A stretch of DNA of 64,000 bases, taken from NCBI GenBank assembly GCA_951406725.2, contig OX597815.1, positions 146,630,001-146,694,000 of the forward strand. The letters are read 5' to 3'. The translations under genes were made by a program, and so were the position numbers. This DNA is from Octopus vulgaris (lineage: Eukaryota). Below, piece after piece: positions 120 to 63,610 of the stretch (positions are counted from its first letter, which is position 1; every line of letters begins with the position of its first letter). The notes below the pieces were generated by a model that worked only from the letters and a program-made list of their open reading frames with translations, was not told the origin of the DNA and searched no databases.

Positions 120-1075
120 TAATGATACTGATTGGTGAAGCACTTTTTCGGGGTTCCATCAAAAATCATCTGAGAAACCATTTCTCATCATTTTCGAATA
201 TAAATGAGACAACCCACATTTCTATCGAACTTCGTCTGGAGACCAAGATAGCATGGAGTTAAACCTTCGACCAAATGGTCTATTATAAAAAATAGTGCAC
301 CATATAAGAGAACATCACGAGTATGCGACCTATGGCTTGAAGAAACCTTGAAAATAATCACATCCAGGGTAAACGTGATAAATAGGCACTCTGTGATGAT
401 CATATCATGTAAACGTAAGAAAAAACGTCATTCATGGAGTCTGGAAAAAATATTTTGAAACAAAATAACACCATATAGAAAAGCGAAGGAACCTAAACAA
501 ATAAACAAACCAACCACTATTTGAGATGCTATACACCATATCAGGAAACATAATCAAGAGGTCACCATAAGAAAATAGCATTTATCAATTTAGTCAACAA
601 ATCCCTCTGCATAGCAGCAGCACTTGACCACACGTTGAGATCAGAATTTATTGAAGATAGTCATGCCTTAAATGAAATTAAACAAACGAATGTACTACTC
701 ATCCCTAACATCTGCTGAATGAAGAGCAAAATACATCCAACACCACCACACGCACCTCCACACCCATACAACAACCATTCCTTTCTCTTTTCCCATCTCC
801 TTCTACTCTTCCCCGCCAAATACACACACATATGTGCACATAACTCGCTTGACCTTCATACTGGTAAAAAGAGAAAAATTTAGCTCTGTGGTTCATCCAC
901 TAATGTTATATCGCCTGAAGAAAGGAATCAGTGATTATGATGATGATCAACGGGCTGCCCACGGATACTACGGACTACAATGTAGGGAATAAGGATTTTG
1001 ATGTTAAATGCGGAATACGGACCGTGATATTAAAAGTCATGGGGTTTGTGGAAACGCGCGTAGTGTGGCATTAAA
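120..1075 (+). mobile_element. Degenerate PLE 3' portion (same EN type as 55300-55760) plus probable 3' UTR
   Basis: Reads IG...NHFSSF...; KWSIIKNSAPYKRTSRVCDLWLEE..I....IN..S....CKRKK in ~270-430; downstream CTGAAGA (915) and GAAAcgcgcgTA (1051). Confidence 0.65.
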
Positions 1076-1199
1076 TGCTTATAAATTTCATCTTACGATT
1101 ATCGTTATTATTATTATTATTATTAATATTATTATTATTATTATTATTATTATTATTATTATTATTATTATTATTATTATTATTATTATTATTATTATT

Positions 1200-1565
1200 T
1201 GCACAGCATGTAACGCTGGAGATGTATTACAGTGTCAGATCTTCGCTACTAGTAAACTAATGTAACGCCTCTTATTTTTCGAGTACCTTCCGGAGTATTT
1301 GAGCGGTTCAAATCAGTGCTGTTTTCTACAAGTGCTCCACCCTTATTGCAGTCCCTATTTGTTCCACGTACTTCTTGACATTTTTACTCACTGTTCGCAG
1401 GCCTCCGACAATGATTGGTACTACTGCAACCTTTTTCATCGACCGCAACTGCTTAACTTCCCAAGCTAACCTGTCATATCTCTCGACTTTTCTTTCTTCC
1501 TTATCGCATACCTTGTCGTCAGCTGGACATGCTATATCTATGATCCAGCTTTGTTTTCTTTCTCA
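1200..1565 (-). mobile_element. 3' fragment of Dong/R4-type non-LTR element (restriction-like endonuclease) abutting (TAA)n
   Basis: Minus strand reads WIIDIACPADDKVCDKEERKVERYDRLAWEVKQL...VVPIIVGGL. Confidence 0.8.
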
Positions 1566-2157
1566 GTTAAGAGTGTTTGGCCTCTTCTTGTTCTTCTTGT
1601 TCTTCTTGTTCTTGTTGTTGTTGTTGTTGTTGTTGTTCTTCTTCTTCTTTTTCTTATACACACATGCGCGTGCACACACACATATACAAACTTATATATA
1701 TAAATACATATACACACACGCGCGCACACACACATATAGAGAGATAGGTAGATTAATCCTAAGTTATTGATTACATGCATGTCATGAAAGGAATTGCGTA
1801 ACAAGAGACACGATATTTTGTACAAATCAAATATACTTAGATCGTCTAACATAATGCGATAATTGCGTTTAGTAATGTCATTATTTTACGATGGTATATC
1901 TAATTTCTATACAACACACGACAAACGTTTTTTAAGTAATAGTTTTGAAAATATAGGCCTGAAGTTTACAGAGGCCGAAAAGTATTCGATTCTTGGTGGG
2001 TTTTCTGGTATTTCGTGGAGAAATTTGAACAGGTACCTTTAAGTGTTATAAGATCAATATCGTCTATTGTTTAATCGGGAATTTTCGACTCACTCACTTG
2101 CCCAACTTGCTGGCGTCGTGCGAGAATTTGAAATCATTATTGTTGTTGGTGATCTTT

Positions 2158-2409
2158 TTCTTCATCATCATCATCATCATCATCATCACCATCATCATCA
2201 TCATCATCATCATCATCATCATCATCATCATCATCATCATCATCGTCGTCGTCGTCGTCGTCATCATCATCATCATCATCATCATCATCACCATCTTCTT
2301 CTTCTTCTTCTTCTTCTTCTTCTTCCACTTCTTCTTCTTCTTCTTCTTCTTCTTCTTCTTCTTCTTCTTCTTCTTCTTCTTCTTCTTCTTCTTCTTCTTC
2401 TTCTTCTTT
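2158..2409. repeat. Compound (CAT)n/(CGT)n/(CTT)n microsatellite
   Basis: Direct reading. Confidence 0.98.
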
Positions 2410-2410
2410 A

Positions 2411-3010
2411 AGGTGGTGAGCTGACAACCGTTAACACGCACGGCAAGATGCTTAGCTGCATTTGGTGTTTTTTTTCTTTTTTCACTTGTTTCAGTCATTT
2501 GACTGCGGCCATGCAGGAGCACCGCCTTTAGTCGAGCAAATCGACCCCGGGACTTATTCTTTGTAAGCCCAGTACTTATTTTATCGGTCTCTTTTGCCGA
2601 ACCGCTAGGTTACGGGGACGTAAACACACCAGCATCGGTTGTCAAGCAATGCTAGGGGGACAAACACAGACACAAACACACACACACACACATATATATA
2701 CATATATACGACAGGCTTCTTTCAGTTTCCGTCTACCAAATCCACTCACAAGGTATTGGTCGGCATGGGGCTATAGCAGAAGACACTTGCCCAAGATGCC
2801 ACGCAGTGGGACTGAACCCGGAACCATGTGGTTGGTTAGCAAGCTACTTACCACACAGCCACGTTTTAAATTTAAATTCCACCGGGGCCAACTTTAATTC
2901 TCATTCTTACGGAAACGATAAAATAAGTAGCAGTAAAGCACTGGGGGGGGGGGTCCACGAAATCGGTTTAATCCCCACCCCCACAAAGTTCAGGCGTTGT
3001 ATTTTTAGCA
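2411..3010 (+). mobile_element. SINE family B copy split by the family A insertion
   Basis: Head ggtggtgagctgac..cgttaacacg..atgcttagc (2411-2470) and body aaattccaccggggccaactt...gataaaataagta (2870-3010) match other family B copies. Confidence 0.65.
2480..2863 (-). mobile_element. tRNA-derived SINE (family A), near full length
   Basis: Minus strand: A-box-like tggctgtgtgg, B-box-like ggttcagtcc, ttgggcaagtgtct body motif, internal (TG)n, LINE-like tail; several related copies in window. Confidence 0.85.
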
Positions 3011-62149: not shown

Positions 62150-62295
62150 TTGTCATCACTACCACCACCACCACCACCACTACTACTACCAACACCAACA
62201 CTACCACTACCACCACCACCACCACCACCACTACCACCACCATCATCATCATCATCATCATCAGCAGCAGCAGCAGCAGCAGCAGCAGCAGTAGC
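62150..62295. repeat. Compound (CAC)n/(CAT)n/(CAG)n microsatellite
   Basis: Direct reading. Confidence 0.95.
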
Positions 62296-62789
62296 ATTTG
62301 TACCATTATTGTCATCTTCGGCGCCATCATTGTAGCTGTCGTCGACATCGTCGTTGCGATCGTCACAGCTGCCTTCGTCATAGTTCTGTGTTGAAATTCC
62401 GCCGAGGTCGACTTTGCCTTTCATCCATTTTGAGATCGATAAATTTAGTACCAGTTGCGTACTGATGTCGATCTAATCCACCAAAATTTCAGGCCTTGTG
62501 CCAGGTGTAGGAAAGATCTTGAATATTATTATTATTTGATGAAACTCTCAGCATATTTTGTTGGTTATGATGGAAAGTATTAGCTGCCTACGGCCAGCAA
62601 ACTAAGGTGACACTTCTTTACTGATCATGCCTCAAAAAACCTGCAAAGAACTCTTCCACCTCCAAACAATGACGATGTTCGTAGTGTTTCATATTTACAT
62701 TTGTAGCAATCTTTTTGAACCACGTTGGTAGTTAAGCGCTGATGCTTCCAAGGGAGCCAATCACTATTGGCATCACGTCCACTCTTTTC

Positions 62790-62975
62790 ATTACCCAAAA
62801 CCTGCGTATTTCCCACTTCGATTCATCATAGTTGTTCAACTCATCATAGTTGTTCACTTTTTCCTTCTTTCTCTTCGATCCTGTTGTCACTAGGACATGC
62901 CATGTCAATTATCAGGCATGACTTTTTTTCTTTTCTGTTCACTACTATAATATCAATTTTCTTTTTATTTTTCTG
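62790..62975 (-). mobile_element. Dong/R4-type RLE fragment
   Basis: DIIVVNRKEKKSCLIIDMACPSDNRIEEKE.K. Confidence 0.7.
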
Positions 62976-62991
62976 TTCAAAACATTGTCGA

Positions 62992-63150
62992 AGGAGGTGA
63001 ACTGGCAGAATGGTTAGCACACCGAGCCAAATGCTTAGCGTTATTTCGTCCGAGTCGATAAAATAAGTACCAATTGAACACTGGATCGTTGTTTTCGACC
63101 TACCCCGCTTCCCCGAGATTACACGGTGTGTGCTAAAATTAGGAAACGTT
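62992..63150 (+). mobile_element. SINE family B (internally deleted); related pieces at 62390-62515(+), 60835-60955(-), 25545-25605(+)
   Basis: aggaggtgaactggcagaatggttagcacaccgagccaaatgcttagcgttatttcgtcc...gataaaataagtacca. Confidence 0.7.
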
Positions 63151-63566
63151 ATGTGTATGTGTTTGTGTGTGTGTATACATGGATGGGGATATAGTGGTGC
63201 GTTGATCCAGTAGAGGTAGTGCTTACTTTGTTGCACAGTATAGTATATATATTTATCTATATATATGTATAATATATATACGTGTGTATATGTATGTATG
63301 TATATATGTGTGATTTACATATATGGATATGAGTATATATGTGTGTGTATAATATATATGCGTTTATGTATAATAGCTATATGAGTATGTATAATAACAT
63401 TTATATGTCTGTGTGTGTGTGTATGTGTAATATACATATATATATGTATAGTATATGTATATATGTGTGTGTGTGTATGTGTGTATACAGTTCTATATAT
63501 AAGAATTATGTACATTATTTATATTATTTACATTTGACGGATATTTGTCCTCATCTTGTTTGTAGT

Positions 63567-63610
63567 TTACACGTTTCGGCTGATATACTCGCCAGCTTTC
63601 ATCAGGTGTC
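63567..63610 (-). ncRNA. Degenerate hammerhead motif in a short repeat (~63505-63660)
   Basis: Reverse complement: gacac-CTGATGA-aagctg(gcgagtatat)cagcc-GAAA-cgtgt; cores intact, 3' strand of stem I appears partly deleted. Confidence 0.55.

Follow-up and report, generated by a model that had tools for sequence, protein, structure and literature searches.

The 64,000-nt stretch of Octopus vulgaris contig OX597815.1 analysed here (assembly GCA_951406725.2, positions 146,630,001 to 146,694,000; hereafter the window) contains 15 sites that had been predicted, from the sequence alone, to be hammerhead-like ribozyme motifs. Our analysis indicates that, with one exception, these sites are very probably 3'-end fragments of several Penelope-like element (PLE) families and of one short interspersed element (SINE), each carrying a type I minimal hammerhead ribozyme (min-HHR), which would cleave the RNA of its own element as a dimer, formed between terminal repeats that lie on the same strand within a tandem insertion.

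All 15 stretches were present with the letters originally quoted. A family-agnostic descriptor (stems I and II of at least 3 bp, a palindromic stem III and a relaxed core) detected five intact motifs, starting at 44231 (-), 44428 (+), 45514 (-), 49788 (+) and 57217 (-), compared with a mean of 0.18 and a maximum of 2 in 100 local dinucleotide shuffles of the window; the hit rates were thus not similar. The five motifs represent three insertions, 44231 and 44428 being the inverted arms of one and 45514 and 49788 those of another. The nine sequence types of the window (F1-F9) were each searched genome-wide (143-4,702 first-look candidates per family search) and 30 copies per type were aligned. 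This revealed that every site belongs to a genome-wide repeat family, in which the 3' ends of the copies coincide shortly past the motif and the 5' ends are ragged, and that a min-HHR is restored at the family level in eight of the nine types. Therefore, nine further sites are decayed but real hammerheads. The order of stem I, CUGANGA-type box, stem II, GAAA, stem III, UH and stem I was found in the five intact motifs and, at the family level, at 14 of the 15 sites, which bears out the predicted hammerhead identity for all but 56605-56661; the diversity of cores was also confirmed across families. Profile models built from the genome-wide copies recovered all 15 sites and two unlisted ones, 57345-57408 (-) and 56996-57091 (+). 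Stem III is palindromic and unstable, and was left open in the predicted monomer folds of F1, F3 and F4. An Rfam scan of the window gave no hammerhead family among 141 matches (E <= 1), most of which were microsatellite-driven miRNA models. The window (34% G+C, in a genome of 2.8 Gb) is microsatellite-rich throughout, and the long inverted arms excepted, microsatellites also dominated its repeat search. The features are listed below.

46819-49886 (+): near-complete PLE, main copy of F1; frame open to 49091, hammerhead in the 3' pseudo-long terminal repeat (pLTR)
45453-46818 (-): inverted 5'-truncated F1 copy (endonuclease end and pLTR), arms 100% complementary to 48523-49886
49788-49825 (+): intact F1 min-HHR, U3-A8 core, stem III ACCGGU (descriptor, alignment)
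45514-45551 (-): F1 min-HHR in the inverted arm, identical to the 49788 motif (descriptor)
31406-31441 (-): older F1-related end piece, G12 lost; 77% identical over 250 nt
44428-44510 (+): intact F2 min-HHR, canonical core, long stem II, stem III ACAUAUGU (descriptor, alignment)
44231-44313 (-): intact min-HHR, inverted arm of one F2 insertion (44175-44566; descriptor)
56028-56107 (+): older F2-related relic, 5' core broken (profile model)
51287-51322 (+): F3, lineage with U at core position 6, G5A, otherwise intact (alignment)
14107-14142 (-): F3 relic, 3' core damaged or lost (profile model)
50575-50610 (-): F3 relic, heavily decayed, 3' core lost (profile model, 18 bits)
57345-57408 (-): F3 relic absent from the original list, heavily decayed (profile model, 20 bits)
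57217-57254 (-): intact F4 min-HHR, U4C core, stem III ACUCAGAGU (descriptor, alignment)
56441-56501 (-): F5 copy, U4C core, stem III as in F4, different stem I, G12A (alignment)
30961-31037 (+): remains of an old F7 copy with a broken stem I; stem III ACAGCUGU (alignment)
915-1065 (+): remains of an old F8 copy with a damaged stem I and insertions within stem II; stem III ACGCGCGU (alignment)
63486-64000 (-): F6 SINE, element end near 63486, head just past the window end
63567-63610 (-): min-HHR of the tRNA-headed F6 SINE, 3 nt at the predicted cut site deleted (alignment)
56605-56661 (-): not a hammerhead; repeat F9, with a second copy at 56996-57091 (+) (alignment, profile model)

The F1 element, which we take to be a Neptune, encodes a reverse transcriptase (RT; RVT_1, 3.8e-08), a CxxPxCxxC linker motif and a GIY-YIG endonuclease (EN; 6.4e-05 in the inverted piece, 4.1e-04 in the whole element), and its hammerhead lies about 700 nt past the EN end. 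No other long ORF of the window has recognised domains. The matches listed among F1 copies were 99-100% identical (40 scored of 757 first-look candidates), and a compensatory change in stem II distinguishes F1 from its older relatives. One same-strand F1 pair, 4.4 kb apart, has pieces of open reading frame (ORF) between its members (L010/L009). Placement of the motif in the pLTR of an element with both RT and GIY-YIG was observed for F1 and F3 (the F3 GIY-YIG match being below the Pfam cut-off, E 0.003-0.008), while other copies of F2 and F8 carry related EN-like remnants upstream (33% identity over 70 residues). The RT, linker cysteines, C-terminal GIY-YIG and inverted pLTR of F1 match the traits given for PLEs with a Zn-finger-like linker, i.e. 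the Neptune/Nematis type, and an inverted truncated copy beside the main copy is an arrangement described for PLEs (PMC8557442; here and below, statements on published work refer to the portions of the cited papers covered by our survey).

A putative sister family of F1 (L356; 57% protein identity, same stems) proved to be a frameshifted F1 copy with 95% nucleotide identity. About 55 kb to the left of the window (L276:6334-9523) we identified a young Penelope family with an inverted arm, 47% identical to F1, with a U4C core and stem III AGUACU. Within the window, a decayed Penelope-like ORF (20713-22439, -) is 27-39% identical to the intact one, and no hammerhead was found in the 1.3-1.5 kb downstream of it. 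Three same-strand F4 copies, all G5A, lie 2.3-2.65 kb apart (L148-L150, G000:C29:21180417-21185436), with no Penelope ORF found between them. Two RT fragments (RVT_1) at 9446-10426 (+) and 57977-58945 (-) were unmatched by the Penelope protein and are likely long interspersed elements.

The rejected site, 56605-56661, has a claimed core that varies across 30 copies and lies within a DNA palindrome, with neither a stem I nor a palindromic stem III. The F9 repeat to which it belongs (56577-56671, -; 56920-57100, +) contains an internal (TA)n tract and a short palindrome; at L256/L263 it is tandem, with units of roughly 560 nt. Palindromic stretches around (TA)n, possibly inverted insertions, were also seen at 26200-27580, 58836-58975 and 51416-51670.

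The mechanism that we propose is cleavage of element RNA by the min-HHR as a dimer formed in cis; the core would be under selection only while a lineage transposes and would afterwards decay neutrally. Variants were compared in five families (29 copies each, the best matches to the window query). Rare variants, seen once or twice, were about as frequent in the core as elsewhere (non-CpG positions, 41/1,328 = 0.031 vs 357/9,828 = 0.036, P = 0.34). By contrast, shared variants, present in at least three copies, were scarce in the core (0.006 vs 0.032). This pattern is indicative of selection on transposing masters with neutral decay afterwards, which is its simplest reading. The published min-HHRs (PMC4209133) also speak for the proposed mechanism: they are built in the same way, show U3-A8 covariation and have low activity as dimers. 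Several observations weigh against it. When all variants are pooled, the core is more conserved than the flanks (0.027 vs 0.051, P ~2e-06); we ascribe this to the shared variants, although the rare/shared split is crude and the copies were top hits to the window query. Within 1.5 kb, inverted pairs greatly outnumber same-strand pairs (60 vs 4 of 240 loci, F9 left out), and therefore most insertions could not dimerise in cis. Moreover, not all predicted self-dimers adopt the double-hammerhead fold, no ORF link was found for F4, F5 and F7 in the copies and flanks examined, min-HHRs are reported to have little activity in vitro (PMC4209133), and Naiad elements spread without canonical HHRs (PMC8557442).

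F3, the most abundant family here, is the only one of the hammerhead families lacking the canonical A at core position 6, and was treated as a variant. An exact 30-mer with U at this position (U6; CUGUNGA core) occurs in 14,944 copies genome-wide, with all four bases at N7, while versions of this 30-mer in which A, C or G replaces the U total 543 copies (71 C, 20 A and 9 G among the first 100 listed); the latter show the pattern expected from point mutation of U6. An EN fragment upstream of an F3 motif (L361) gave 13,003 first-look candidates. The 150 that were scored are 93-100% identical, and their matches are free of stops, which indicates a very large recent burst of the lineage. The U6 motif was located 260-940 nt downstream of this EN in 25 of 30 loci examined, and one F3 EN frame also carries RT and the linker cysteine motif; at locus L351 the F3 motif was not tied to the neighbouring ORF. 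U6 is found in subfamilies whose EN regions are 75-82% identical, and one related cluster is mostly A6.

Changes at position 6 are known to be deleterious: the natural A6C ribozyme cleaves at <0.1 per min, has nearly lost its activity in Mg2+ and prefers Mn2+ (PMC3088659, PMC7151607). Together with the presence of U6 in the most abundant family, this might mean that the motifs are catalytically near-dead structural signals, e.g. sites recognised by a protein or by RT, and that the U6 lineage carries a dead ribozyme. We consider this unlikely, although it is the best of the alternatives: the lineage keeps the other core positions, the three stems and the U-H triplet, and varies as a working hammerhead tolerates (any base at N7, A or U at N17). 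Judged by its sequence, the U6 lineage likely retains a slowed but selected ribozyme. The descriptor of PMC4209133 demands CUGANGA and would miss U6; no U6 hammerhead core is described in the literature that we searched, although the alignments of Lunse 2017, which lie outside this survey, may include it or examples from cephalopods.

The F6 SINE, with 4,257 pattern matches genome-wide, is a short, non-coding, dispersed element that combines a tRNA-like head (A and B boxes) and a min-HHR with an (AAT)n tract. The head, recognised by what we take to be the A-box/B-box consensus, was present in 17/30 unselected copies and in 20/30 top hits, and ARAGORN detected no tRNA gene in the window. As in PLE insertions, an inverted partial copy lies upstream in half of the unselected copies (15/30). 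At the predicted cut site, 3 nt flanked by two GU dinucleotides are deleted in 12 of the first 100 copies listed, compared with 1/100 for a site of similar kind that lies 20 nt from it (P = 0.0025). By visual inspection, the arms of a single insertion disagree at six loci. The apparent majority of deleted copies among top hits (23/30), suggestive of a subfamily, was rejected as query bias. No length change was seen at the cut site of F3 (0/100 copies listed); the deletion is thus not general. It may represent a cleavage scar, slippage or mixed templates. No HHR-bearing SINE of PLE type is described in the literature searched, Lunse 2017 and Arkhipova 2017 lying outside the survey. A bolder combination of these observations, tentative and in our opinion somewhat improbable as a whole, is that U6 acts as a selected slow or metal-dependent switch in the most successful Penelope lineage, and that F6 captured a Penelope-type hammerhead, its recurrent deletion being an in vivo cleavage scar left as RT jumps the nick.

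According to the original prediction, the stem III palindrome is family-specific and may act as a self-recognition code, such that only RNAs of the same family dimerise and cleave. The suitability of a palindromic stem III for dimer formation is supported, and had already been published (PMC4209133). The palindromes were compared using descriptor matches in 1.93 Mb, which formed 57 clusters; 21 were discarded for being weak or probably fortuitous, and chance may also account for a few among the 36 retained. These 36 clusters have 23 different palindromes, which would suit a selected code preventing cross-family dimers, but seven palindromes are common to 20 of the clusters, and stem III is unchanged, and stem I mostly so, between related lineages of 72-82% nucleotide identity. 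An 8-mer is shared by 10/120 lineage pairs (1.9-7.5 expected), i.e. at or above chance, and thus there is no avoidance between lineages. The commonest palindrome, ACGU, contributes only -1.7 kcal/mol, and recurs across phyla from trematodes to reptiles (table in PMC4209133). In a double hammerhead each catalytic centre pairs the 5' stem I arm of one copy with the 3' arm of the other (PMC4209133). A cross stem I of at least 3 bp is possible in only 9 of 46 ordered same-palindrome pairs; therefore, it is stem I that does the separating. In predicted cofolding of the window motifs, self pairs (-7.4 to -11.6 kcal/mol) were more stable than pairs of distant families (-0.7 to -3.4 kcal/mol), and therefore distant families likely do not cross-cleave; they are predicted to be incompatible through stem I as much as through stem III. 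The preference for self pairs over distant families stands as far as cofolding goes, but the palindrome is not family-specific. There is no sign of selected divergence of stem III, and a selected code, with or without a contribution of stem I, appears quite improbable. Distant families have likely become incompatible as a side effect of drift in their stems I and III. A dimer formed in cis joins two copies of one element, and so no code would be required for choosing the partner.

The density of motifs in the window had been described as high. We applied the same descriptor to 60 evenly spaced 10-kb stretches of the genome (600 kb) and to 200 kb of window flank. Per 64 kb it gave 5 matches in the window, 2.6 in the flank and 3.2 in the genome sample (30 matches), vs 0.35 in shuffles; a stricter descriptor gave 2.0, 1.9 and 1.9, respectively. 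The window count is not above the genome-wide rate (P = 0.22-0.24), and nor is that of the commonest family alone (4 vs 2.1 expected, P = 0.17). The window is therefore an ordinary sample of a genome-wide motif population, as far as intact motifs, which the comparison covers, are concerned. The net rate extrapolates to ~125,000 intact motifs genome-wide. An apparent enrichment with the family models (17 vs 3.3) was rejected as circular, because the models derive from this window.

With such an extrapolated number, many motifs would have to lie in introns somewhere, and the cutting of host pre-mRNA from an intron had also been suggested; it would affect a host gene. We screened 248 of 355 ORFs of the window (low-complexity frames dropped) and 98 of 361 of the flank against Pfam, and detected no host exon domain, although short exons would be missed; the matches were to RT and GIY-YIG only, apart from one sub-threshold match to MASE6. 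Furthermore, no two intact motifs of the same family lie on one strand within the window, and the cores probably decay neutrally. Cutting of host pre-mRNA is thus unsupported, because no host exon was found and the intact pairs of the window are inverted, and we regard it as very improbable. Fortuitous similarity in AT-rich DNA can be dismissed as an explanation for 14 of the 15 sites, where family copies restore full motifs and intact matches number 5 vs 0.18 in shuffles, even though one site is not a hammerhead and single motifs fold no better than shuffles (z -1.7 to +0.7).

The motif class itself has already been published: min-HHRs reside in the pLTRs of metazoan PLEs (Cervera and de la Pena 2014, PMC4209133), and the octopus motifs share with them (i) the short stem I, the extra base 9/10.1, the palindromic stem III and the U3-A8 variant, (ii) the many families per genome, mostly present as single truncated copies, (iii) opposite-strand pairs 100-700 bp apart and (iv) predicted dimer cleavage. 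In contrast, U6 and U4C cores and octopus are absent from the portions of that paper examined, and the 2,000-9,000 motifs per genome given there are far fewer than the ~125,000 extrapolated here. The small PLE variants of Lunse, Weinberg and Breaker (2016/17; via PMC6765202, PMC7761336) likewise combine a short palindromic stem III, dimer cleavage and PLE association. Natural A6C and U4C ribozymes (Perreault 2011, PMC3088659; Naghdi 2020, PMC7151607) illustrate that changes at position 6 occur naturally, U4C being known from a viroid; however, A6C is a single phage sequence, whereas U6 belongs to an autonomous lineage and is inherited in ~15,000 exact copies. As for F6, schistosome SINE-like elements and metazoan non-LTR retrozymes (PMC6765202, PMC7229834, PMC7761336) are also non-autonomous and hammerhead-bearing (the schistosome elements with a promoter besides), with PLEs as their proposed partners, but they are tandem with mostly canonical HHRs, whereas F6 is dispersed and combines a minimal HHR with a tRNA-like head and inverted arms like those of PLEs. 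The short head-to-tail tandem repeats with an Rfam-type hammerhead that mark canonical type I HHRs or non-LTR retrozymes were not seen among the octopus motifs, with no Rfam hammerhead and same-strand pairs at 4/240 loci. Within the literature surveyed, the U6 core and the HHR-bearing tRNA-headed SINE therefore look like unreported variants, in both of which cleavage is predicted.

The in vivo role of Penelope hammerheads has been called a mystery (PMC7761336). Descriptors that demand CUGANGA miss the U6 lineage. With its ~125,000 extrapolated motifs, a high-copy U6 lineage and a candidate cleavage scar, the O. vulgaris genome offers material in which this role can be tested, and the variant pattern points to selection for the element, not for the host.

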